Positions 9,463 through 21,884 of a stretch of 64,000 bases of DNA are shown here, piece by piece. The DNA lies in contig JBFXEV010000001.1 in assembly GCA_050179755.1 (NCBI GenBank), positions 1,061,940 to 1,125,939 on the forward strand, given 5' to 3'. Origin of the DNA: Candidatus Babeliales bacterium. GTDB lineage: Bacteria > Babelota > Babeliae > Babelales > JBFXEV01. Numbering within the stretch: position 1 is the stretch's first letter; each line of letters starts with the position of its first letter. A program made the position numbers and the translations under genes. The notes beneath the pieces are model-generated. The model made no database searches, had not been told where the DNA came from, and saw only the letters and a list, made by a program, of their open reading frames with translations.

Positions 9463-9840
9463 ATGAAAAGAATTACCTTTTTTGCGCTCAGCATTATGAT
9501 TTTTAAAACTATGCACGTGTGCGGTATGGATCGAGAATCTATTACCAAAGTCACACCCCAAGAAATTAGTACGTTGCTTGAAAAAAAAGCATACGACTAT
9601 CAAAGAGCAATGTTTGCATCGTATACTGCTAGTGGCAAATTTCTTGATGGGCATATAAACCCAATAGAAGTGGATTATGACATTCTTCTGAAAGAGCAAG
9701 TTATTCCGCTATTGATAGCACAAAGAATACAAGGTGCAAAAGCGCAGGGAATAGCAATAGAAGAAACTGAAATTAGTAATGGAGTTACTGCGCAGGTTCA
9801 TGCACTATGGAATGCACGCAAAAAAACACGTAAACAATGA
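9463..9840 (+). CDS. Hypothetical secreted protein
   Basis: Signal-peptide-like N-terminus. No family recognised. Confidence 0.4.
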   Translation: MKRITFFALSIMIFKTMHVCGMDRESITKVTPQEISTLLEKKAYDYQRAMFASYTASGKFLDGHINPIEVDYDILLKEQVIPLLIAQRIQGAKAQGIAIEETEISNGVTAQVHALWNARKKTRKQ

Positions 9841-9855
9841 TACTTTAAGGGGTGT

Positions 9856-10827
9856 ATGAAAATAAAACCCATAATCATAAGTTTGCTAGTACTTGCTTGT
9901 TTTTCTCTGTATGCATCACAAGATGCGTATACAATAATCAAGCGACTGCCCAAAGCAGAATTGCATATACATTTAGGTGGTGCGTATCCTCTTAGTTATT
10001 TACGCACAATTGCAACGCCAGAGCAATTTGCAGCACTTCAAATGGGTCTAGATAAAGTAGCAGATAAAGTTGAGTATCAAAATATATTTTCTGCATTTGG
10101 TCTTGTCAGCCAAATTGTTAATTCTGAACAAAAGGTTGAAGATGGCACGTATGCTCTATGCAAAGAATTGCAAGCTGATAGCGTGGAATACGTAGAAATT
10201 CGTACGGGCCTTAAAAATATGGGTAATGGATATCAAAGTTATTTAGAGGCCGTACTGCGTGGTATAGAACGTGCAATGTGTGCAAACTTTAGAGCATGCG
10301 TTATTTTAAGTTTGCAACGCAATGCGACTATGGCATATGCACAAGCCACGATTGATCTTGCACGCGCGTATAAAGATCGCGGCATTGTGGGTATAGATAT
10401 TTCTGGCGATTCAGCCATTGGTGATATAAGGCCAATTTTGCCAATAGTGCTTCAAGCCAAAACTGCAGGTCTTAAAATTCTCGTGCATATTGGTGAATCC
10501 CAATTTGAAACTGACCAAATGCTGTTGCTGGAGACATTGCAGCCAGATAGAGTTGGCCATGCAGTGCATTTGTGTGATGAGGCATATCAATGGATTATTG
10601 CCCACAAAATTCCAGTAGAAGTTTGCTTAACAAGCGCTGAATTGACCATGATGATCGACCATCATACTATGCATCCTTGGATTGCATATTATCGCAAAGG
10701 TCATCCAATTATTATTGGTACTGATGATCCATTACTATTCAGAACTAATTTAACTAATGAATATATGCTGCTTTATGATGCAGGGTTGCTTACACTTGAA
10801 GAAATAGCAAATCTTACGCACAATTAA
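9856..10827 (+). CDS. add: Adenosine deaminase with signal peptide
   Basis: LPKAELHIHLGG metal-binding motif, a downstream HAVH motif and GTDDP. SD AAGGGG upstream. N-terminus IIISLLVLACFSLYASQ. Confidence 0.8.
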   Translation: MKIKPIIISLLVLACFSLYASQDAYTIIKRLPKAELHIHLGGAYPLSYLRTIATPEQFAALQMGLDKVADKVEYQNIFSAFGLVSQIVNSEQKVEDGTYALCKELQADSVEYVEIRTGLKNMGNGYQSYLEAVLRGIERAMCANFRACVILSLQRNATMAYAQATIDLARAYKDRGIVGIDISGDSAIGDIRPILPIVLQAKTAGLKILVHIGESQFETDQMLLLETLQPDRVGHAVHLCDEAYQWIIAHKIPVEVCLTSAELTMMIDHHTMHPWIAYYRKGHPIIIGTDDPLLFRTNLTNEYMLLYDAGLLTLEEIANLTHN

Positions 10828-10854: not shown

Positions 10855-11205
10855 TTAAATATCTTTTCTATCTGCCTGTTCTTGTTGCTCTTGGTATTTT
10901 AATGCCAATAGCTTATAAAGTTTGTCTGGATCGCCGGTAAGATTTCGAGTGTTTGTAGACATGCTTGCCCTGCACAGCCCCAAATGATTACGAGTTACCT
11001 CTATAAACTCGTTTTGACTATTTCTAGCGTCATAACCTGGGTAGTGATGACCGTAAATCTGAGTAATTTTTGTTATCTTAAATTCTTTGAGCGCCGTTTC
11101 TATGCGTTGCGTTTCATCCATGGCATACAGCGTTGTATTTTGAAAGTGAACACACATAATAACAAGAATTGCGTGAATAGAGAGATAACGTCTAACAATA
11201 AACAT
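10855..11205 (-). CDS. Hypothetical secreted protein
   Basis: ORF with a hydrophobic N-terminus. No family recognised. Confidence 0.35.
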   Translation of the reverse strand: MFIVRRYLSIHAILVIMCVHFQNTTLYAMDETQRIETALKEFKITKITQIYGHHYPGYDARNSQNEFIEVTRNHLGLCRASMSTNTRNLTGDPDKLYKLLALKYQEQQEQADRKDI

Positions 11206-11225: not shown

Positions 11226-12197
11226 TTAGTTTTGAGTAAACAGATGTTGCAATTTGGTATTAATATCTTGCATGCTTGTTTGTGCGGTAAAATCACACAT
11301 AAATGGCACTATAGTAATATAGCCTTGTGCAAGAGCAAGGTTGTCTGAATGAGCGGCAGTATCTTTATAATCTACTACGCATAAATCAATACAAAAATTG
11401 TTATCACCTTTATCATACGCTCTAAACACTGTATTTCCTTTAAGATACGTATCATACACTGCGTGGCCTGATTTGCATAATGCAATTCCTTTAATAGGAG
11501 CTTGTTCTGTTGCGTCAGCTTGTAATGCGGGAATATTCATATTTAATAAAACGCCATCAGGCAGAAGTTGATCGTTATCATCACGCTGTGCATCAAGTAA
11601 TTCCACAAAATAAGTAACAAATTTTGCCGTTTCTTGTATACGTGATTCATTTGCTCCTAAATTAATGCTTATGGCAATACTGGGTAGTGATTTTCTCCCC
11701 ATGCATACGCTGCGTGCCACTTGTGCAGCACCCACGGTGCCAGAATGCACACAACGAATGCTTACATTTTCACCACGGTTAGGCCCAGAAAGCACAATAT
11801 CAGGCTCACATCCAGCGCGGTACATTAATTCTTCACCCACAAGCACGCATTGGCCCGGAGTGGCCGGCCAGGATTTCCCTGCAAGTGGCCCAGCAATGTA
11901 GCCTATTTCTGTGCTTTGTACTGCAAATTCTTGATGGCCAAGTGGGATTAATTGCACATGCTTGCTTGAAAGTTGTACTGAGGTGCCGCAACCACTTTGG
12001 TTTGAAGAAGGGGCCACTAAAAATACGTTGTGGCCAGCATCACGCAGAGTTTGTTTGAGTGCTTGTATTTCAAGCGTGTGATAGCCATCATCATTAGTCA
12101 GAAGAATATTGAGCTTGCGTGGTTCTTTTGCGCAGACAAAATTTATTATAGTGGTGTTTGTAAGCACGATGCTGAGTAGGAGAAACATTTTCTTCAT
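11226..12197 (-). CDS. surE: SurE-type 5'/3'-nucleotidase with signal peptide
   Basis: ILLTNDDGYHTLEIQAL N-terminal SurE motif preceded by MKKMFLLLSIVLTNTTIINFVCA. Confidence 0.75.
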   Translation of the reverse strand: MKKMFLLLSIVLTNTTIINFVCAKEPRKLNILLTNDDGYHTLEIQALKQTLRDAGHNVFLVAPSSNQSGCGTSVQLSSKHVQLIPLGHQEFAVQSTEIGYIAGPLAGKSWPATPGQCVLVGEELMYRAGCEPDIVLSGPNRGENVSIRCVHSGTVGAAQVARSVCMGRKSLPSIAISINLGANESRIQETAKFVTYFVELLDAQRDDNDQLLPDGVLLNMNIPALQADATEQAPIKGIALCKSGHAVYDTYLKGNTVFRAYDKGDNNFCIDLCVVDYKDTAAHSDNLALAQGYITIVPFMCDFTAQTSMQDINTKLQHLFTQN

Positions 12198-12211
12198 GTG
12201 GTTCCTTTAAA

Positions 12212-12397
12212 GTGAAAATTTTCTTGGTAATCGTATGCCAAACATAGTAGTAATTTCGCGTGCATTACCGTCTGGTAATGTGCTTGCCAATTCTTCAAGC
12301 GTTATTGTGTGATTGCCTTGTTTGCCAATGATAATTACTTCTTCATCATTATAAACTTCATCTTGCCCAATATCCACCATAAATTGATCCATGCAAA
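12212..12397 (-). pseudogene. Orphan 3'-terminal fragment of alr (left direct repeat of the island)
   Basis: 186 nt with 2 mismatches to 17947-18132. Encodes MDQFMVDIGQDEVYNDEEVIIIGKQGNHTITLEELASTLPDGNAREITTMFGIRLPRKF. Everything upstream in the 95-aa ORF is unrelated to Alr. Confidence 0.85.
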
Positions 12398-12500
12398 ATA
12401 GATGCATGCGCAATACATCCAATTGCCTCAAGAGCTTCATCGTTATTTTGAGCTGCTGATGCAAGCGCTTGCCCGCTTTTCTTATAGACCACATTAAGTT

Positions 12501-12529
12501 TTACAAAATCTGACCCTTTGCAATATAAT
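12501..12529 (+). promoter_or_regulatory. Sigma70-like promoter TTACAA-N17-TATAAT upstream of the giant ORF
   Basis: Hexamers at 12501-12506 and 12524-12529. Confidence 0.4.
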
Positions 12530-12564
12530 CAGAAAATCTTGGGATGCGCTCAGTCTCATATGTG

Positions 12565-12593
12565 TTGAACTAGTATACTTATTGGAGTATAAT
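12565..12593 (+). promoter_or_regulatory. Sigma70-like promoter TTGAAC-N17-TATAAT
   Basis: Hexamers at 12565-12570 and 12588-12593. The -10 overlaps the listed TTG start, which argues for a downstream start such as the ATG at 12632. Confidence 0.4.
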
Positions 12594-15500
12594 TGAATGA
12601 GTTTTTACATCATGGAAGTGTCATCATTCCTATGTTTCGCTTAAGCTTGTCGGTACGTTTTCAACTAATATTAAGTTTGATTTACTTAGGTCTGATTTTT
12701 TTTGTATGGCCTAGCAAGCTGTACACATATTCTGTGGATACAATAACTTTTTCAGGCTCTTCGTATCCAAATGATTCAAACACCATTAGAGATCAAAAAC
12801 CGCGCATTTCGCAAGAAACTGCAAACATTCGTAGTCGTATTGAAAGCATTAATAATCCTGATACTATCCCTTCTGGTACGTTTCCAAAAAATAACAATTA
12901 TAGTGAGTATGAATTTATAGAAGAACGAGACCGAGATAGAAAAAGAGCAGAAAAAGAAAGACGTGGGCAAGCAGAAAACCAAAAACAAAAAGAAGAAAAA
13001 ATTATACAGAAGGAAGTTGCAAAAAAGTTATTAGATCAATCAAATAGAATTTCATCTTTTACACAGCAAACATCTTCCTCATCTCACTACGCTAAACAAG
13101 ACAAATCACCTGACTATATAACAAAACGCGCCACGTATTTAAAAAAGTTCCATGATGATCCTGATTATTACTACAGATCTACCGTCTATTTAAGGTATTC
13201 AAATTACCAAACAAGATCTCTTCTCGAGCAACACACGATTGATACGGATGAGTTTTATAATGAATTCTTCGGCAATCACTTGCAACATGGAATTCATGAA
13301 GAATATTTAAACATTGTCTCTCGTGTAACTAAAATTAATTTTGATAAAAACAACTGTCAACTCAGATCATTTATTGTATTGGCTGTGCAAACTTCCCGCG
13401 ATAACAATGTAAAAGGCAATTGTGTGACATCTTTAGAAATTAATGATTTTTGTCATCATATCCTGAATCCTAATTATCATGGTTTTCTTGCAGGTCAAAT
13501 TGCTCACTTACAAACAACTATTACCTATTATGAATCAAGTCATTGGAAACAAGCTCTAGGGTATCTAGCAGACGCTGCTCTAGGTGATCAAGAAATGCGC
13601 GCTTGCTTGAATGCTGCTCAAAAGTTTACTGAACAATTCAACATAATAAGGGATTCTCAATATAATGTGCAAGTTATAGAAATTATGGAGCAATTAAGCT
13701 TCAATGAACTTTCTGATCTCACGGCGCAGCGCCAATTTGAATTGTTAGAAAAACATCATGAAGCGATTGCCATAAAAGCATTACGAGCGCTAAATCAACA
13801 AAATATAAAAGATTTGCCAATTTTTGGTTATGCAGTTTCTATTCTTAAATTAGATAATCCACATAATGCATCAAATAGAAAGCTCATTGATTATTTATTA
13901 TATTCTAATGATTGTCTACATCGCGTTCATGAGCTCACGAATACGCCATATAGCTCTTTTCAGCAAAAAAATCCTTTCTTCACCGATAAAGGTATTCTTA
14001 AAGAATATGCTATTATTGCAGATATTGATAATTTGCCTATTCCGCCATTAGATCATTTAAAAAGCCCCGTATCTGCCCACGATTTATTATACACCTATTG
14101 TACAACTAATAAACTTGAGAAAAAAAAATTGGCTTATAGTGGCCTTTATCATGCAACCTATGCAACGATTCATCATCATTCTGAACGCTCAAAAGGCCAT
14201 GAGTTGCTTGCCGATAAGTATTATAAAACACTCTATAGTAGTGTGTTCAGTAAAAATGAAAAACTTATTGATTGGTGTGATGATCTTGCGTGCAGTTATG
14301 AAAACGTGTATCAACAAGAGGTGCACGATGAGCTTGTTTGGCTAACTAATTATTATATTGATACTCAAGAAAAAAGTATTAAAAAAGATGCAATCACCCT
14401 CAGATTGCTTGATGATATTGAGGATACTTTAATTACTGCCCATGGTTATAATCAAGATAATCAGTCAGAAAAAAGTCATGACCTTATTGCAAATATCGTA
14501 CATAACTTTGGTATGCTGCCAAAAGAAAATCAAAAAACACCCGATCTATTTCAATCACTCAATCTACTAGATGTTTCTAGAAATATAAGTAATAAAATAC
14601 AAGCAAGAGTTGCACATATTAAAGTGCATGCATGGTTAAATGATTATAATCTTGAAGAAACACTAGAGTATGCTCGGCATGAGCTTTCAAAAATGGAAAT
14701 ACAGCATGGCAAATTAATATGCCAAGCCGATTCAATTCAAGAAAGACCTGATGAGGTAATTCAATCACTATGTTTAGCAGAAGTTCTTGGATTTAGCGTA
14801 AAAACTGATGCAGATACTATTGATATTGGTTGCATTCCTAAAAAAGATCTTGCAACATTTAAAGACAATTGGCCAGAAGAAGAAGTGGTACAGAATGTAT
14901 TCAACCTTTGGCCTGAAGAAGTCCCCTTGTGTTCTGCAGGGTCACAAGGTGCAGCATATGAACGATATGCTGATCGCTATGATGCCTATCAAGAAACCAA
15001 ACTCACGCCGTATGTTTTTTTTGAAAGAACGTATGAAATTTCGAAAGAAGCTCAACAATTGCTTGATAAAAATGGAATAGATAGTGATTATTTAAAAGTT
15101 GGAACATACAATCGTATACAACATCAATTACATATAGAACTCATTGATATTCTTGAACAAACAACATCTTTAGACGCTCATCAAGAAGTGTGCGATTTAT
15201 TACGCTCGACAAACACTATGATGCTTGATTTTATATCAAGTGCAGCATATGAGAATAAAAATGGCAATATTTTACGCACGTGGACTATTGCTGATTTTTG
15301 TTGGGCAACGCTAGATTGTGGTCAAGCAATTCTTGAGGGAGCTCTTGAGGGCGGTGCTAATGCATTGATCTATCCTTTCAATTGTCCTGTTGAAACAATC
15401 TTGTTTACCGTAGCAGGTAAATATATGTTGTATTATCAACTTACAAAGCTTACTTATGAACTTGGCAGTGCGGTGTACGATCATCTTTCAAAAGAACAAG

Positions 15501-16516
15501 AAGAAAATACATCCAGCGAAACAAAAACTGCAATACAATTACGCGATATTTTAAAAGCTGCATCTTCTTTCGGTGCACAATTTTTGGTAGACCATAAAAT
15601 AGTAAATCCTATAGTTACGCAACGTATTAATTTAATGCAAAGTAAATTGGTCGATAAGTTTGTATTAGAAAATACGACTCAATGGTCTAAAATGAGACCA
15701 GAGGCTATTAAAGCTCCACAGACAGCGCAAGTGCAATTGGCAAGTGGTGAAAAAATTGAAGTAACTTTTCACAATGAAAATTTAGGGCAACGGCCGCAAG
15801 GCTTAAATTCTCCACAGAAACCGCGGAATTCATCGGGTGATAAAAAAGAATATCCAAGACCATCACCTGAAGAAATAGATCGCAATAGAGTAAATAAAAA
15901 TTTAGCAGATAAAGCTCGTAAACAAAAAGCTATTGATAATGCATCTCAAAAAGTGGAAAGAACCAATCGTCAAAAAATTAATACTGCCCAAAATATTCAA
16001 GATGCACAAATTTGTATCTTACATAAATATGACGAATTAGAAAAAATTTTTTATAAACATCTTTCACCTCATGCTGAATTTTTATATAAAAAATTTGGGA
16101 TAAGGATAAAAGGAATTGATTTTTATCATCATATGGAAAGAGATTTTAATCAAAATATAAAAGGTTATACAGGTTTTCATTCGGCACGCAATCATCCTGA
16201 GCATGTTTTTAAACTATTAGATGGTCCTAATGAGCATGGATTTGAAAATATTATTGTTGGTAGTGCAAGAAAAATAAAAAAAGCTCCTACCAGTACGTAT
16301 CCAAAAAACTGGGATGAAATTACTATCGGCCAGAGAGTTATTGAAGGGTTGCTTTCAGGAGAAGTTCATAAAAATAAGGGTGGAATCTTGGAAATACATG
16401 GAAAAGCTCAAAATTATTTACCTCATAGGGGTGTTGTTCCGTTTGATATTACAATTTTTTTAGAACCTAGTGGAATGATAAGGTCATCATTTCCACAATT
16501 AAATTTTAGGAAATAA
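12593..16516 (+). CDS. Giant (about 1300 aa) membrane-anchored protein with EndoU-like C-terminal toxin domain (polymorphic-toxin-like)
   Basis: N-terminal TM helix (LILSLIYLGLIFFVW), a KE-rich region and a long helical body with an internal repeat (HLQHGIHEEY.../RIQHQLHIEL...). The C-terminal ~168 aa (nt 16010-16516) carry GFHS...STYPKNWDEITIGQRVIEGL...IRSSFP, resembling bacterial EndoU nuclease toxin domains. The start may be the ATG at 12632. Confidence 0.65.
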   Translation: MNEFLHHGSVIIPMFRLSLSVRFQLILSLIYLGLIFFVWPSKLYTYSVDTITFSGSSYPNDSNTIRDQKPRISQETANIRSRIESINNPDTIPSGTFPKNNNYSEYEFIEERDRDRKRAEKERRGQAENQKQKEEKIIQKEVAKKLLDQSNRISSFTQQTSSSSHYAKQDKSPDYITKRATYLKKFHDDPDYYYRSTVYLRYSNYQTRSLLEQHTIDTDEFYNEFFGNHLQHGIHEEYLNIVSRVTKINFDKNNCQLRSFIVLAVQTSRDNNVKGNCVTSLEINDFCHHILNPNYHGFLAGQIAHLQTTITYYESSHWKQALGYLADAALGDQEMRACLNAAQKFTEQFNIIRDSQYNVQVIEIMEQLSFNELSDLTAQRQFELLEKHHEAIAIKALRALNQQNIKDLPIFGYAVSILKLDNPHNASNRKLIDYLLYSNDCLHRVHELTNTPYSSFQQKNPFFTDKGILKEYAIIADIDNLPIPPLDHLKSPVSAHDLLYTYCTTNKLEKKKLAYSGLYHATYATIHHHSERSKGHELLADKYYKTLYSSVFSKNEKLIDWCDDLACSYENVYQQEVHDELVWLTNYYIDTQEKSIKKDAITLRLLDDIEDTLITAHGYNQDNQSEKSHDLIANIVHNFGMLPKENQKTPDLFQSLNLLDVSRNISNKIQARVAHIKVHAWLNDYNLEETLEYARHELSKMEIQHGKLICQADSIQERPDEVIQSLCLAEVLGFSVKTDADTIDIGCIPKKDLATFKDNWPEEEVVQNVFNLWPEEVPLCSAGSQGAAYERYADRYDAYQETKLTPYVFFERTYEISKEAQQLLDKNGIDSDYLKVGTYNRIQHQLHIELIDILEQTTSLDAHQEVCDLLRSTNTMMLDFISSAAYENKNGNILRTWTIADFCWATLDCGQAILEGALEGGANALIYPFNCPVETILFTVAGKYMLYYQLTKLTYELGSAVYDHLSKEQEENTSSETKTAIQLRDILKAASSFGAQFLVDHKIVNPIVTQRINLMQSKLVDKFVLENTTQWSKMRPEAIKAPQTAQVQLASGEKIEVTFHNENLGQRPQGLNSPQKPRNSSGDKKEYPRPSPEEIDRNRVNKNLADKARKQKAIDNASQKVERTNRQKINTAQNIQDAQICILHKYDELEKIFYKHLSPHAEFLYKKFGIRIKGIDFYHHMERDFNQNIKGYTGFHSARNHPEHVFKLLDGPNEHGFENIIVGSARKIKKAPTSTYPKNWDEITIGQRVIEGLLSGEVHKNKGGILEIHGKAQNYLPHRGVVPFDITIFLEPSGMIRSSFPQLNFRK

Positions 16517-16517
16517 T

Positions 16518-17318
16518 ATGAATTCATTAATATTAAAGTATAATGATGGTTTTTATCGTTATAATGCATTCCAAATAACGAATGAATTGCTTGATTTGGC
16601 TGTGAGTCTGTTAACTACCGAAGAAATATGTACATCGGATTATTATAAAGAATTTATATACGAATTACCCTATAATACATACTCGGGTAATGCATATTAT
16701 ATGGAAAGAATAGATGATTATATCATTTTGGGTTGTCAATATAGCTTTGAAAGAGCATATTTGCATTTATATCAATTTGAAAATCTTATGAGTCAATGGC
16801 GAAAAGCATATGAAGATAAGCCAACTGAAATGATAATTTCAGTTGATGATAAAAATTTTATTATCTCGTATGAAAAAGATAGTAAGAGTATAAAATTAAC
16901 TTCAACATCAGAATATATAACATCAACATCGTTTTTAAGCGAATATCCTTATGCTGATAACTATGTTGAAATAGAGCCAATCTATGATGAATTACATGTG
17001 TTTGAATCTGATGATCGTAGGTTTAACGTATTTGCTTATTTACTGACAAGCAATATTCCTTCTTCAGATTATGTAGAAAAGTTGCAACAACCTCCTTATG
17101 AATATTATGATGATCGGTACTATTTAGCAATTGTTGAAGATAGAATTCTTATCTATGATAAAACAATGGAAATAAAAGTATTGCCAGCCTATAATAAATT
17201 TCTTGATCTTATGAAACAATGGCCACTAGCAGTACATAAAAAACCAAAACTTATTCGTATATATATTGAAAATGACTATGATCTTAAGATTTTTATATTG
17301 CAGCCAGTTTCTTTATAA
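16518..17318 (+). CDS. Candidate immunity protein (two tandem homologous domains)
   Basis: ATG lies 1 nt after the toxin stop. Acidic and Tyr-rich. The halves align (YYMERIDDYIILG...FENLMSQWRKAYEDKP vs YYLAIVEDRILIY...FLDLMKQWPLAVHKKP). Confidence 0.55.
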   Translation: MNSLILKYNDGFYRYNAFQITNELLDLAVSLLTTEEICTSDYYKEFIYELPYNTYSGNAYYMERIDDYIILGCQYSFERAYLHLYQFENLMSQWRKAYEDKPTEMIISVDDKNFIISYEKDSKSIKLTSTSEYITSTSFLSEYPYADNYVEIEPIYDELHVFESDDRRFNVFAYLLTSNIPSSDYVEKLQQPPYEYYDDRYYLAIVEDRILIYDKTMEIKVLPAYNKFLDLMKQWPLAVHKKPKLIRIYIENDYDLKIFILQPVSL

Positions 17319-17569
17319 TAGTTTTTGCATGGCTTAAACAATTGAGTTAAATCTTAGAAAGACAAAAAGTTAATGAATAGCGGATTGAACTTTATATTAT
17401 TTTTTTAACCAGGTGAAAATTTTATCTGGTAGGTTGTCGTTTGATGATCTAGTCGTTTGTATGTTCTGTGTATACGCTGTGACTGTATATAATCACATTT
17501 AATATGATAAAATAGATGTTAAGAGCATTTCTTAATTTTAATAAAGAGTAATACAATGAAAAAAACTAT

Positions 17570-17890
17570 ATGGTTGGTTGTTGTCCTGAGTGTAAATATT
17601 ATTTCTCCGTAATGGGTATGATGCGTTATGTGTATTGTGCAGAAGATGATACAACTGCTTCCTATTCAGCGATTTTATTAGCGACTGGCGTTGAAATTGT
17701 GACATGTGACAAAGAAAAAAAAGTATATCGTGCTTGTTTGACTCGTGTTGTATTATCACAAAAACCGGGTCGATTTACATTTGAGGAACAAGACCTTGAT
17801 TTTCCGCAATCAGTGTATGAGCAGTTAAAAGATAGGTATGAAGCAAATAAAACACGTGCATTGCAGACTTTTCAAACAAATATAGATTAA
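17570..17890 (+). CDS. Hypothetical protein (possibly frameshifted; see findings)
   Basis: 106-aa ORF. An 18-codon signal-peptide mini-ORF (17556-17612) sits in another frame over its 5' end. Confidence 0.3.
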   Translation: MVGCCPECKYYFSVMGMMRYVYCAEDDTTASYSAILLATGVEIVTCDKEKKVYRACLTRVVLSQKPGRFTFEEQDLDFPQSVYEQLKDRYEANKTRALQTFQTNID

Positions 17891-17941
17891 CAAAAACAGG
17901 AAGGCTTGAAATTGAAGAGATTGCGTGCGCATTTTCTTTTT

Positions 17942-19066
17942 TTATTGTAAAAATTTTCTTGGTAATCGTATGCCAAACATAGTAGTAATTTCGCGTGCAT
18001 TACCGTCTGGTAATGTGCTTGCCAATTCTTCAAGCGTTATTGTGTGACTGCCTTGTTTGCCAATGATAATTACTTCTTCATCATTATAAACTTCATCTTG
18101 CCCAATATCCACCATAAATTGATCCATGCAAATGCGCCCAATTATAGGGTAACGTTTGCCACGAATGATCACTTGCCCGCCATGCATAAATTGCCGATTA
18201 AAGCCGTCACCATAGCCAAGCGGCACCGTGATTACACGAGTATCTTTGGGTGCCTTCCACGTAAGGCCATAGCTCACGCCAGCACCCTCTTTGACTACTT
18301 TAAAATACACCACGCGTGAGCTGAGCGCCATAACTGCCTTTAATGCAATGCTGGTATGCATATGGGGTGCAGGTACTATGCCATACATAATGAGACCTGG
18401 CCGCACCATATCTAAATGGCTTTCTGGAAATTGTAAAATTGCGCCAGATGCTGCTATATGAAAAAGAGGTTTATTAGCAAAAATATGTGCATGGGCAACG
18501 CTTTGTTTAAAACGTTCAAGTTGTGTGCGAGCAAAAGTAAGGTCTTGTTCTTCACCCATTGCAAAATGAGAGAAAATGCCCACAACATCGCACCATTGTG
18601 TGGTGCTTGCATACTCGATGAGTTTATGCGCATTGTAATAATGAATGCCCGTGCGCTCAATGCCGGTATCAATTTCAAGATGTATGCGTGCGCGCTTTCG
18701 TGCGTGCTTTGCATGTTGTTCAATAGATTCTAGCTTGTTTAGTGATGCTGCGTTAATATCAAGATCATACTGTAAAAAGAGTTCAATTTGCCGGTGTAAA
18801 ATACCGCCAAGCACCACAATGGGCACTTTAATGTTTGCTTTTCTGAGTGCTATTCCTTCTTCAAGTAGTGCTACACCAAGCCATGAGGCTCCAATTTTTT
18901 GTAAGTGCTGAGCACATTCAATAAGGCCGTGCCCATACGCATTGCCTTTTACAATGGGCATAACATGCGCAGAGCCTACAAACGCTTGTATGGCGTGGAA
19001 GTTATGCTCAAGAGCAGAAAGATTAATGTTAATATAGGTGGGCCGTTGTTGCAGTTCTTCATACAT
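17942..19066 (-). CDS. alr: Alanine racemase
   Basis: PLP-lysine motif VKGNAYGHG, C-terminal beta domain and full length of 374 aa. Confidence 0.9.
   Translation of the reverse strand: MYEELQQRPTYININLSALEHNFHAIQAFVGSAHVMPIVKGNAYGHGLIECAQHLQKIGASWLGVALLEEGIALRKANIKVPIVVLGGILHRQIELFLQYDLDINAASLNKLESIEQHAKHARKRARIHLEIDTGIERTGIHYYNAHKLIEYASTTQWCDVVGIFSHFAMGEEQDLTFARTQLERFKQSVAHAHIFANKPLFHIAASGAILQFPESHLDMVRPGLIMYGIVPAPHMHTSIALKAVMALSSRVVYFKVVKEGAGVSYGLTWKAPKDTRVITVPLGYGDGFNRQFMHGGQVIIRGKRYPIIGRICMDQFMVDIGQDEVYNDEEVIIIGKQGSHTITLEELASTLPDGNAREITTMFGIRLPRKFLQ
17947..18132. repeat. Right direct repeat of the island (functional alr 3' end)
   Basis: 184/186 identical to 12212-12397 by manual alignment. 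Confidence 0.85.
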
Positions 19067-19092: not shown

Positions 19093-20148
19093 TCAAACCT
19101 TTAGTTGAGTTGAGGGACCAAAATAGTCACGCGCTCTTTCTAGCATTGCATTAAATTCATGCATATTGGTTTGCGTATCACGAACACCTTCAATATAAGT
19201 AATTCCTAAAATTCCGGAAGCTTTTGGTGCAAAATAAATATAGGCGGGTTTGCCGTGTTGCATTACGCGTACGTGTATAATGTATGTTAATGCGGCAATG
19301 GGCTGCTCTTTAAGGCGAATCAGATGGCCTTGCACAGGAATAATGCCCGAGTCATTGTTAAGTTGTTGTGCGCCTAGCCCGGTACAGTTAATAATAATTG
19401 ATTCATCTAGTTCATCAAAGGAAGTAATAGTGCGTTCATGCAACGAAATGCCAAGCTTTTGAGCGTGTGCTTTCATCTGTTGCATCATGTGATATGTGTG
19501 AATAAAGAGCGTGTTATATTCTCTTACCGCGTGCTGTTTGCCGTTGCCAAAATCTAGAGTGGCAAGCTTGGGCAATCCCCAAAAATTAAGCCGTGAATAT
19601 TTGCTTGTTAGATCTACATATTGCGGCAAGCGTTGTGCGGCAGAGGGTGCAATAAAAGGATGCTCTCCGTTGATAATGGCAGTATACTCTCGTAATGAAA
19701 CTTCTTGTGCGCGTTGGTATTTATTATACACGGGCGTAAAAGCAGTGTAAGGGAAAAATAAACCGACGGCGTTTTGCGACGTGGTGTTATCAAATTGTTT
19801 GGCAACTATTGTTACGGCATAGCCTTTTTGTGCGAGCGCAATGGCGCTTAAAAGCCCCATGCAGCCTGCACCAATAACGCAAATAGGTTTACTTTTGAAT
19901 GAGGGATGTTGCGTAAGTTGCGCTTCAAATTCTTCGAGCACTTGTTCTATAACGCCAAAAAGGAGTGTCCACCCCGATCCGCTGTGGCCATAATTGTGAA
20001 TAATAAGTTTATCATTTTTTACTTCCCCATAGAGTTGATAACCGTTTGCATGCTTAGGGCGAATGCATGATAAAAATTCTTCAATATGATCGGCTGAAAG
20101 AATGGGGGGTGTTAAATGGATTGTTTCCATGTAAGATTCTTGTTGCAT
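19093..20148 (-). CDS. D-amino-acid oxidase family FAD oxidoreductase, apparently circularly permuted
   Basis: HNYGHSGSGWTL (normally C-terminal) lies at residues ~51-62, ahead of the Rossmann motif ICVIGAGCMGLL (~89). INCTGLGA and PVQGH follow. 26 bp upstream of alr on the same strand. Confidence 0.7.
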   Translation of the reverse strand: MQQESYMETIHLTPPILSADHIEEFLSCIRPKHANGYQLYGEVKNDKLIIHNYGHSGSGWTLLFGVIEQVLEEFEAQLTQHPSFKSKPICVIGAGCMGLLSAIALAQKGYAVTIVAKQFDNTTSQNAVGLFFPYTAFTPVYNKYQRAQEVSLREYTAIINGEHPFIAPSAAQRLPQYVDLTSKYSRLNFWGLPKLATLDFGNGKQHAVREYNTLFIHTYHMMQQMKAHAQKLGISLHERTITSFDELDESIIINCTGLGAQQLNNDSGIIPVQGHLIRLKEQPIAALTYIIHVRVMQHGKPAYIYFAPKASGILGITYIEGVRDTQTNMHEFNAMLERARDYFGPSTQLKV

Positions 20149-20258
20149 AAGTAATAAAAGAATATTTGTTCAAGTATACAAAGAGTACCATGTGTCATGA
20201 AGAATGGGAATATGATATGCTAGTACTACTATATATTGGGATCTCTATAGGAAAATTA

Positions 20259-21884
20259 ATGAGAAAATTACACATTTTTTTAATTGTTATAATTTTAAGC
20301 CTTGGTGTCTATTGGGTTTGGTTTAAGCAATCTACGTTATCTCCATATGAGCTCTATAAAAATGAAATCCCTTATACATATCGTCTTGGACTTACTTCGT
20401 TAGAGCAAGAAATAATTATAGATAAGGTATCTATAATGGGGCACATTCCTGCATGGCTTTCTGGTACCTTGTTTCGTAATGGACCAGCCAAATTTACGCA
20501 AGGATCTAATTGGGTTTCCAATTGGTTTGATGGGCTTGCTATGATTCATGCTTTTTCCTTTCATGATGGCAAAGTTTCTTATGCCAACAAATTTTTACGC
20601 TCCGATGATTATGATTTTGTAGAGAAAACTGGAACTATGTCATATGCTGGTTTTGCACAAGATCCCTGTAAATCATATTTTAAACAATTATTTTCTTTGT
20701 TTGTGCCCGAAAAGAAGATAAAAAAAGAGTACGCATTGCCGAATGCAAATGTTAATATTGCATGTTATGGGCATCATATGGTGGCACTCACAGAAACACC
20801 TTTACCTATTGAATTTGACCCAAAAACTTTAAAAACAATTGGCGGTTTGCTTTACGATGATAAACTTCCAAAGCGTAGTATTCACGATACTGCTCATCCA
20901 CACTACGATAAAGAACGTAAAGAACATTTAGGGTATTATTCTCAATTTGGTAGAATTAGTACGCATAATCTTTTTCGTATACAAGATGGGTCTACTACTC
21001 GGGAAGTTCTGGCATCTATAGAAGTGCAAGAGCCTTCATACATGCATAGTTTTTTCTTGACAGAACATTATGCAATATTGACATTGCTGCCTTTGGTGGT
21101 GAATCCTCTTGATTTATTAACGAGTAAGAAGTCATTTATCAAGAACTTTAGATGGAAACCAGAGCTTGGAACCAAGCTAGTAGTCATTGATAGAATTAAT
21201 AATAAGATTCAGGGGTCATATAACACGCATGCGTTTTTTGCCTTTCATACGGTAAATGCTTTTGAGCAAGGTGACTCTCTTATAATGGACATTGTTACCT
21301 ATCCTGATGGTTCAGGAATTGGACAAGCAAAAATAGCCACAATTTTTGAAGGGAAGAATCCGGGAAACTTAGAACGCAATAAAGTATATACCGGAGAGCC
21401 AGACACAGATATTCTTGAGGTAGGTCAGCTAAATCGATTAACAGTGAATCTTTCGAGTGCGACTGTTGCTGTGCGTACGTTATATGATAACTTTATTGAG
21501 TTACCTCGTATTAATTATGAGCATTATAATACAAAACAATATTCCTATATCTATGCCTATGGAAAAAAGTATGCACCATTATTTGTTGCCGATAGGCTTG
21601 TAAAGGTTAATGTGAATACGGGTAAGTCTATTGAATGGTGGCAAGAGCATTGTTACCCCGGAGAGCCGATATTTGTAGCAGCTCCTTCGTTAAAATCGGA
21701 AGACGATGGAGTTATTCTTTCTGTTGTGCTTGATACACAAAAACAGACATCATTTTTGTTAGTGCTAGATGGTGAAACTTTTAAAGAACTGGCGCGAGCT
21801 TATGTGCCACATCATATTCCTTTTGGGATTCATGGACTCTTTATGGCTAATTCTTTCTTTTTAGGTGCGCCCAGCCGGGGTTGA
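20259..21884 (+). CDS. Carotenoid cleavage oxygenase (RPE65/CCD) family protein with N-terminal TM anchor
   Basis: FDGLAMIHAF, HPH.D, MHSFFLTEHY, FHTVNAFE and the terminal FGIHG motif (four-His iron site pattern). The ATG at 20259 is preferred over the TTG at 20166. Confidence 0.8.
   Translation: MRKLHIFLIVIILSLGVYWVWFKQSTLSPYELYKNEIPYTYRLGLTSLEQEIIIDKVSIMGHIPAWLSGTLFRNGPAKFTQGSNWVSNWFDGLAMIHAFSFHDGKVSYANKFLRSDDYDFVEKTGTMSYAGFAQDPCKSYFKQLFSLFVPEKKIKKEYALPNANVNIACYGHHMVALTETPLPIEFDPKTLKTIGGLLYDDKLPKRSIHDTAHPHYDKERKEHLGYYSQFGRISTHNLFRIQDGSTTREVLASIEVQEPSYMHSFFLTEHYAILTLLPLVVNPLDLLTSKKSFIKNFRWKPELGTKLVVIDRINNKIQGSYNTHAFFAFHTVNAFEQGDSLIMDIVTYPDGSGIGQAKIATIFEGKNPGNLERNKVYTGEPDTDILEVGQLNRLTVNLSSATVAVRTLYDNFIELPRINYEHYNTKQYSYIYAYGKKYAPLFVADRLVKVNVNTGKSIEWWQEHCYPGEPIFVAAPSLKSEDDGVILSVVLDTQKQTSFLLVLDGETFKELARAYVPHHIPFGIHGLFMANSFFLGAPSRG

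Follow-up and report, generated by a model that had tools for sequence, protein, structure and literature searches.

The stretch analyzed here (the window) comprises 64,000 nucleotides of a Candidatus Babeliales (Dependentiae) genome (GenBank assembly GCA_050179755.1, contig JBFXEV010000001.1, positions 1,061,940 to 1,125,939 of the forward strand). Between window positions 12593 and 17318, it carries a giant gene whose product ends in an EndoU-like RNase domain, directly followed by a gene for a small acidic partner. A first-pass annotation, made by a model from the sequence, had proposed that the two form a toxin/immunity pair. The features of the locus are as follows.

12500..12529, plus strand: sigma-70-like promoter match (TTTACA-18-TATAAT, 11/12 consensus positions), the best upstream of the big gene and weak, such sites being no commoner than in shuffles of the AT-rich region
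12593..16516, plus strand: giant gene, predicted to encode a toxin; uninterrupted open reading frame (ORF) of 1307 aa from TTG 12593 or about 1294 aa from ATG 12632
12632..12724, plus strand: putative Sec-type signal peptide or signal anchor, residues 14–44 of the 1307-aa ORF (Kyte-Doolittle scan)
13142..13477, plus strand: body module copy 1, residues ~184–295, with the motifs GNHLQHGIH…SLEINDFC; in no described family
14990..15325, plus strand: body module copy 2, residues ~800–911 (YNRIQHQLHIE…TIADFCWATLDCGQA)
15713..16009, plus strand: basic low-complexity linker, residues ~1041–1139; in relatives, the point at which body and C-terminal cassette recombine
16010..16099, plus strand: helix before the nuclease domain, residues 1140–1169, kept in shorter relatives; helix 3–29 of the AlphaFold2 (AF2) model, with a predicted local distance difference test score (pLDDT) of >90
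16100..16501, plus strand: divergent EndoU_bacteria-type RNase domain, residues 1170–1303, as judged by phmmer, hhalign, a seed hidden Markov model (HMM), and conserved residues
16518..17318, plus strand: partner gene, predicted to encode an immunity protein of 266 aa (isoelectric point [pI] 4.6) with two ~120-aa domains and a disordered linker
about 16518–16892 and 16935–17315, plus strand: the two partner domain copies, which are homologous halves

The C-terminal motifs quoted in the first-pass annotation as evidence for an EndoU domain were present as written and coincided with the conserved columns of the family alignment. Residues 1090–1307 served as the query for an exhaustive phmmer search against 1.84 billion protein representatives. 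This search with the C-terminal region (CT) of the window protein returned 12 proteins, 3 close relatives and 9 distant ones, the latter comprising a CT fragment of 88 aa plus eight proteins, 157–607 aa long, that matched at their C-termini. All nine distant proteins matched the Pfam family EndoU_bacteria (PF14436); for eight, the score of 31–67 bits exceeded the gathering cutoff of 25.3, and phmmer linked the window CT to these with E values of 6e-10 to 7e-4. Among the nearest homologs, the CT of the 43%-identical protein P0002 matched PF14436 directly (20.9 bits, E 5e-4, model positions 17–128 of 129), the orphan P0009 scored 13 bits, and P0008 gave no score. A profile of the Babeliales CTs aligned with that of the Pfam-passing members over 131 columns (hhalign, 99.8%, E 3e-30). 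An HMM built from Pfam-passing seeds alone scored 84.6 bits on window residues 1170–1303 and at most 6 bits on the other window ORFs, a score that is not fully independent, as the seeds were picked by similarity to the query.

Conserved columns of the CT alignment comprised the histidine of IDxxH, G-x-H-S, K-x-K, S-T-x-[FY]-P-x-x-W (the last two combined as K.K..ST.[FY]P..W), and a terminal aromatic-Pro. Candidate catalytic residues are H1179, H1196, K1227/K1229, and S1233/T1234; F1300-P1301 at the C-terminus is kept as well. All active-site residue classes were retained across proteins just 24–58% identical. A paired N-proximal histidine and a C-terminal aromatic-x-Pro define EndoU, the aromatic-Pro packing onto both histidines (Mushegian et al., PMC7297114), and the defining residues of Tox-EndoU are also described in PMC3482391. 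The 17-residue spacing of H1179 and H1196 equals that of H187 and H204, the histidines of the solved toxin 5HKQ (PMC9086364). On sequence-profile grounds, the last ~135 aa are a divergent member of EndoU_bacteria, and the original identification was right in substance, as judged from the phmmer matches to Pfam-passing proteins, the hhalign result, and the seed HMM. The profile search by which it was to be checked had a split outcome: PF14436 itself was not matched directly, and homology was established by way of Pfam-passing EndoU proteins. RNase activity and toxicity of the CT are predicted from these similarities.

Structural comparison did not confirm the assignment. The AF2 model of the CT (pLDDT 81.9, predicted template modeling score 0.80) was poor around the histidines, and a Foldseek search with it against PDB and BFVD returned noise alone (orange carotenoid protein and NTF2-like folds, TM ~0.25). 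Neither the CT alone nor any of the profiles A1, A2, A3, A4, and A5 retrieved a credible match among PDB sequences, and the profile of Pfam-passing members itself had no PDB sequence match. In Pfam, NCBIfam, PADLOC, and PHROGs, neither the big protein nor its CT, the partner, or a 106-aa ORF farther downstream had any match beyond two at chance level, to RNase_H (E 0.044) and PhnS (E 0.13). The lack of a direct Pfam match and of a structural match by Foldseek would suit a remote, nonfunctional similarity, with the big gene encoding a secreted protein of structural or adhesive function and the partner being an unrelated, co-transcribed gene. Such an explanation is exceedingly improbable, however, given the strong profile evidence and the retention of all EndoU active-site residue classes at such low identity; it also leaves unexplained the constant order of CT and partner, their co-variation, and their opposite charges, which are described below.

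The partner gene begins 1 nt after the stop codon of the big gene (…AGGAAATAA-T-ATG), with an AGGA 8 nt upstream of its ATG, and its product is acidic and built from two homologous halves (hhalign, 98.9%, E 3e-17; BLAST, 3e-6), as first proposed. It has neither a hydrophobic N-terminus nor an export signal and is predicted to be translationally coupled to the toxin gene and cytoplasmic. Its pI of 4.6 compares with 9.4 for the window CT; across loci, partners had pI values of 4.6–6.5 (5/6 below 5.4) and CTs 8.9–9.4. The NCBI annotation calls the partner as just 205 aa (16518–16700 affected). Foldseek matches of the partner model to sliding clamps in PDB (root mean square deviation ~17 Å) were rejected as artifacts of its duplicated topology.

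Full-length versions of the locus were found four times, in the window and at the loci L002, L003, and L012 (L001, L004, and L007 are the same locus as L003), with collinear big proteins of 1381–1435 aa at the three loci outside the window. The two-domain partner directly followed the big gene in 4/4 of these loci, and a partner domain lay directly 3' of a member of the EndoU clade in 13/13 readable modules. Eleven of these were significant, with E values of 1e-6 to 1e-70 (window, L002, L003 [twice], L012, L008, L009, L010, L011 [twice], and L014), and two were weak (L013, 1e-4; L016, 0.02, truncated). Each distant EndoU protein was followed by a gene of ~120 aa coding for a single-domain homolog of the partner halves (L009, L010, and L011 [twice], E 1e-6 to 1e-9; L014, 6e-14), and L008 had two such single-domain partners in tandem (1e-14 and 6e-10). 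L002 carried two extra partner paralogs. The proposed immunity function is thus supported by comparative context: the partner domain always follows the EndoU clade, co-varies with the CT, and stays intact beside a decayed CT. Sequence comparison therefore supports the partner as the cognate immunity protein, which would physically neutralize the CT.

Comparison of the full-length loci further indicated how CT and partner evolve. The big proteins of L012 and L003 (L12_big and L3_big) lie in the same gene order (ftsH – toxin – partner – 209/227-aa gene – tol genes), and their bodies are 55–92% identical along the length, dropping to 25–49% from residue ~1080 on. Overall, identities between the two loci were 71% for the body, 49% for the CT, and 43% for the partner. 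The window protein showed the reverse pattern toward L012, with 22–51% identity through most of its body, rising to 67–70% in the CT. CT identity predicted the identity of the adjacent partner (r = 0.91, 10 pairs from five CT/partner modules) and did not predict body identity. These comparisons indicate that CT and partner are exchanged as one cassette, independently of the body.

At cdiA and rhs loci, an incoming CT and immunity gene recombine at a conserved junction and displace the old pair downstream, where the old toxin decays and the old immunity gene is kept. By analogy, the arrangement of L003 is that of the same displacement mechanism. Its first partner gene is followed by a frameshifted linker-plus-CT remnant and then by an intact partner gene (L3_272), whose nearest relative is the partner L12_289. 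Over 741 nt, this remnant matches the 3' end of the L012 gene with 82% identity, but all it has in common with the L003 gene itself is a 148-nt junction block (83%); the alignment of the orphan fragment L3_73 spans residues 1041–1095, within the linker. The extra partners of L002, the order toxin–partner–orphan CT–partner–CT remnant in L011, and the orphan CT fragment with its partner in L014 fit cassette displacement. Of the polymorphism initially envisaged, the swapping of CTs with their partners independently of the body was found, and every CT found was EndoU type. The conserved C-terminus that, by the first-pass annotation, would have spoken against its proposal was thus not what the homologs showed.

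Two of these regions contained further elements. In L010, the partner L10_127 is followed by a 260-aa gene with an in-frame stop (L010:2076–2858), in which a partner-type domain (E 9e-11) is fused to a second domain that also ends the upstream gene L010:2–469. In the region L014:2–1868 (GCA_009612935.1, WBZM01056193.1), the orphan EndoU fragment and its partner are preceded by the C-terminal piece of a protein and by a pair of small paralogs (125 and 119 aa). This may be a mixed array of different toxin/immunity cassette types; Pfam had no match for any of them.

Translation of the big protein likely starts at ATG 12632, which lies in frame and gives MFRLSLSVRFQLILSLIYLGLIFFVW…. A hypothetical protein at NCBI, from a Candidatus Babeliales metagenome-assembled genome, matches it with 100% identity; the NCBI annotation uses an internal GTG start and arrives at 1260 aa, with loss of the hydrophobic N-terminus (12593–12733). 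Comparison with homologs supports the longer forms of both the big protein and the partner over that annotation. The Kyte-Doolittle scan revealed a sole hydrophobic segment, the N-terminal one, in the window protein and in each full-length homolog. Basic-then-hydrophobic N-termini, followed by small residues, were seen in the homologs L12, L3, L2, and P0015. The protein had been called membrane anchored with one N-terminal transmembrane helix; the single hydrophobic N-terminus was confirmed, and it is better called a Sec-type signal peptide or anchor. The KE-rich stretch described in the first-pass annotation was recovered (residues 101–150 contain 14 K/R and 13 D/E), and so was the internal duplication of the body, ~111 aa long (residues ~184–295 versus ~800–911; hhalign, 91.9%, E 6.8e-7; also BLAST).

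The second copy of this module is the most conserved part of the body (58–70% identity among the four full-length proteins), and the consensus of the module reads GN.LQH..H.E … INDFC….L.C. A single copy occurs in shorter proteins that end in EndoU, namely the 607-aa P0015 (E 1.7e-10) and the 579-aa L11_579 (E 5e-16), which points to a small family of carriers of differing lengths. A role of the module as a Cys/His peptidase was dropped, since its histidines are not kept in L11_579. The body had no match in Pfam, NCBIfam, PADLOC, PHROGs, or PDB sequences, and the four profile collections revealed no recognizable trafficking module in the scanned bodies (type V secretion system [T5SS]/filamentous hemagglutinin [FHA], Rhs-YD, PAAR/type VI secretion system [T6SS], LXG/WXG type VII secretion system [T7SS], MafB-N, MuF, or TANFOR). 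The earlier statement that the protein lacks any known delivery domain therefore holds in these collections apart from the Sec-type N-terminus. A CdiB gene, a two-partner secretion domain, FHA repeats, and a VENN pretoxin motif were not found in the Pfam scan; the window locus adjoins alr and an alr fragment, and those of L003 and L012 adjoin ftsH and tol genes. In one cultured member of the Babeliales, Sec is described as the export route, and apparent outer membrane vesicles have been observed (Deeg et al., PMC6561590). The big protein would be exported beyond the inner membrane, and its CT may be released at the linker.

The locus thus combines the features of a polymorphic toxin: a large protein with a Sec-type N-terminus and a toxin domain at its extreme C-terminus, a downstream partner gene with predicted immunity function, and cassette recombination with orphan modules. 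We consider it very probable that it represents an EndoU/immunity cassette of the polymorphic toxin type. Several observations weigh against this interpretation. The window CT did not match PF14436 even at E ≤ 10 and left the gathering threshold of 25.3 bits unmet, and the seed HMM is subject to the dependence mentioned above. The partner matched no described immunity family or solved structure: seven two-domain and seven single-domain partners had no match in Pfam, including the families paired with Tox-EndoU (SUKH, Imm-SuFu, Imm28, and CdiI), and a PDB sequence search with the partner was likewise negative. No secretion or delivery apparatus (T5SS, T6SS, T7SS, or Rhs) linked to the locus was found. 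The family is tiny, with four full-length loci, all from metagenomes. Finally, a body-alignment search for homologs that join this body to a toxin other than EndoU returned nothing; it missed even the known positives P0001 and P0002. A GTDB genome scan for the family recovered the L003 organism alone, and nothing was found when metagenomes were scanned with body or partner, when viral contigs were scanned, or by tblastn against plasmids; nulls for this low-complexity-rich protein are unreliable, as a word-indexed protein search with the full-length query missed the clear homolog P0008 and the body alignment failed to return the identical database entry.

Among the known systems that come close is CdiA-CT(STECO31)/CdiI (PDB 5HKQ), a tRNA-Glu anticodon nuclease and an example of the Tox-EndoU of polymorphic toxin systems. 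There, as in the window, a giant exported protein has the nuclease at its very C-terminal end (export being predicted here from the Sec-type N-terminus), and the two histidines 17 residues apart, the K…ST.FP..W block, and the terminal aromatic-Pro recur. Also shared are an acidic inhibitor encoded right after the basic toxin, downstream orphan CT/immunity modules, and CT replacement at a conserved junction. In contrast to CdiA-CT(STECO31), the window domain falls below the Pfam threshold and has no solved relative detectable by sequence, and the locus lacks CdiB, hemagglutinin/FHA repeats, and VENN. Its partner is unrelated to CdiI(STECO31) or to Pfam Imm families and consists of a tandem duplication of a new domain, and the organism belongs to the Dependentiae rather than to free-living proteobacteria. 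The MafB/MafI systems of Neisseria (the Sec-dependent "T2SS" class of Zhang et al. 2012) resemble the locus in that the signal peptide is the sole recognizable export signal, a family-specific N-terminal region precedes a variable C-terminal toxin (including EndoU), the immunity gene lies directly downstream, and orphan cassettes and genomic islands occur. Unlike MafB, the window protein has a body about four times longer without DUF1020/MafB-N similarity and with its own duplicated ~110-aa module, and its family has so far yielded EndoU CTs alone. Barnase/barstar likewise pairs a Sec-exported RNase of the BECR superfamily with an acidic cytoplasmic inhibitor guarding the producer, as predicted here, but barnase is a small free enzyme without a giant carrier, cassette polymorphism, orphan modules, or immunity arrays. 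Toxins of amoeba-associated intracellular bacteria (Odyssella; Tox-URI in Simkania and Rickettsia bellii) share the adjacent immunity gene and the residence within a protist cell and have been read as agents of conflict between co-residents (Zhang et al. 2012); they differ in phylum, toxin clade, immunity family, and carrier architecture.

In the window, the toxin locus lies on a ~5.5-kb horizontally acquired insertion in the Candidatus Babeliales genome, as indicated by a 185-nt direct repeat of the 3' end of alr with 1 mismatch and by a lower GC content. Its boundaries and remaining content are as follows.

12213..12397, minus strand: left direct-repeat copy, an alr 3'-end fragment beside surE, identical in 184/185 nt to 17948–18132; left edge of the insertion
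17319..17947, no strand: right remainder of the insertion, its sole content being the 106-aa Cys-rich ORF
17570–17890, plus strand: 106-aa Cys-rich ORF (MVGCCPECKYYF…), the only other ORF in the island
17948..18132, minus strand: right direct-repeat copy, inside the intact alr (17942–19066, minus strand)

The ORF at 12207–12494 matched Ala_racemase_C at positions 69–126 of 127. GC content was 0.33 within the insertion (12398–17947, 5.5 kb) versus 0.40 in the rest of the window, with 0.28 in the partner gene. Such a layout suggests that a circular DNA bearing an alr 3' fragment was inserted by a Campbell-type or site-specific event. No integrase or transposase was found within the 5.5-kb segment, and a mobile element with its own integrase was therefore dropped as an explanation. 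No family in Pfam, NCBIfam, PADLOC, or PHROGs matched the 106-aa ORF, and none of the related loci had a homolog of it; it may or may not be a gene.

A small acquired island on which toxin and inhibitor genes are tightly coupled and no other cargo is obvious could be stabilized by an addiction module of the toxin–antitoxin (TA) kind, in which the EndoU domain would act in the producer upon loss of the island and the partner would be the antitoxin; BECR-fold RNases do include TA toxins such as RelE (PMC3482391). Unlike TA toxins, however, the domain forms the tip of a ~1300-aa protein that has a Sec-type N-terminus in all four homologs. In L003 and L012, the locus occupies a different chromosomal site that is syntenic between them and is no island. 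Moreover, the toxin gene precedes the inhibitor gene, the inhibitor exceeds the size typical of antitoxins, and orphan arrays are typical of polymorphic toxins rather than of TA modules. Addiction is accordingly a highly improbable explanation.

Several genes around the insertion code for putatively exported proteins. Signal-peptide-like hydrophobic N-termini were present in an adenosine deaminase (9856–10827, plus strand) and a SurE nucleotidase (11226–12197, minus strand), so that this host-dependent bacterium may export enzymes of nucleoside salvage. A hydrophobic N-terminus followed by (A/G)-M-(D/E) recurred in small proteins of the window (9463–9840, plus strand; 10855–11205, minus strand) and of the related loci (L003:10943–11626, L002:1700–2392, and L012:11000–11629, all minus strand) and may mark a signal-peptide cleavage site or a sorting signal peculiar to the lineage. 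The last three are genes for secreted-looking proteins of 209–230 aa on the strand opposite to the toxin locus, at its 3' side in L003 and L012 and at its 5' side in L002; the window has none, and the protein could be an accessory factor or a mere neighbor. On the other side of the insertion, a gene for a DAO-type FAD oxidoreductase (19093–20148, minus strand), possibly involved in D-alanine handling, adjoins alr, followed by a gene of the RPE65/carotenoid-oxygenase family (20166–21884, plus strand), an unexpected enzyme for a reduced parasite genome.

The salvage genes bear on the question of the target. An exported RNase might degrade protist RNA for host manipulation or nucleotide salvage, with the partner protecting the producer before export in the manner of barstar and no conflict between bacteria being involved. 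Dependentiae are obligate protist parasites with massive secretomes, and the endoU genes of Chromulinavorax have been read as tools of host biopolymer breakdown (Deeg et al., PMC6561590). The nearby adenosine deaminase and SurE genes and the absence of T5SS, T6SS, T7SS, or Rhs machinery linked to the locus agree with a host-directed role, and toxins of intracellular bacteria have been argued to be aimed mostly at the host (Zhang et al., PMC3482391). By the criterion of that study, however, host-directed toxins lack adjacent immunity genes (PMC3482391), yet an immunity-like gene is always present here. Toxin-less partner paralogs (L002), orphan CTs with partners (L003, L011, and L014), and cassette replacement that keeps the old partner speak of diversifying conflict between related bacteria and are not predicted by simple self-protection, and the salvage genes lie outside the insertion, so that their proximity would be accidental. 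We therefore consider a purely host-directed or nutrient-scavenging nuclease unlikely. Adjacent immunity genes, rare in intracellular bacteria, have been used as a mark of intra-specific conflict (Zhang et al., PMC3482391), and the extra and orphan immunity genes of the present family point in the same direction as that criterion.

If the locus is a polymorphic toxin cassette, the following sequence of events can be envisaged. The ~1300-aa protein would consist, in order, of a signal peptide, the KE-rich stretch, a helical body with two ~110-aa modules, a basic disordered linker, and the EndoU RNase. In the producer and its siblings, the immunity protein would bind and block the basic EndoU domain. 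The toxin would be exported via Sec and then displayed or released, and the body would mediate contact and entry. The CT would then be delivered into a cell without matching immunity; a related bacterium in the same infection is the likeliest target, ahead of the protist host. There it would cleave RNA by a metal-independent His-His-Lys mechanism, tRNA being the precedent substrate.

Polymorphic EndoU toxin/immunity systems are already well known in free-living and pathogenic bacteria. New here are a divergent toxin clade beyond the Pfam model, a new immunity domain, a new carrier module, and the occurrence in Dependentiae; a literature search found no paper describing polymorphic toxins in this group. 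For annotation, the analysis contributes two or three new domain families and corrects two gene starts in the public record. Dependentiae are reduced protist parasites, and the sole published reading found of their endoU genes is host biopolymer digestion. The prevailing view is that intracellular bacteria mostly lack immunity genes and direct their toxins at the host. The immunity arrays and the cassette displacement suggest instead that Babeliales compete with each other, and the locus offers a testable handle on mutual strain exclusion within a host cell. More speculatively, and with the balance of our judgment against it, the ~1100-aa body with its duplicated ~110-aa module might be a new Sec-dependent platform that injects an EndoU RNase into rival bacteria in the same protist cell without T5, T6, or T7 systems, and the ~120-aa partner domain might found a new immunity family. 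If true, this would mean kin warfare inside a eukaryotic cell, in a phylum whose secretome was thought to be host directed only.

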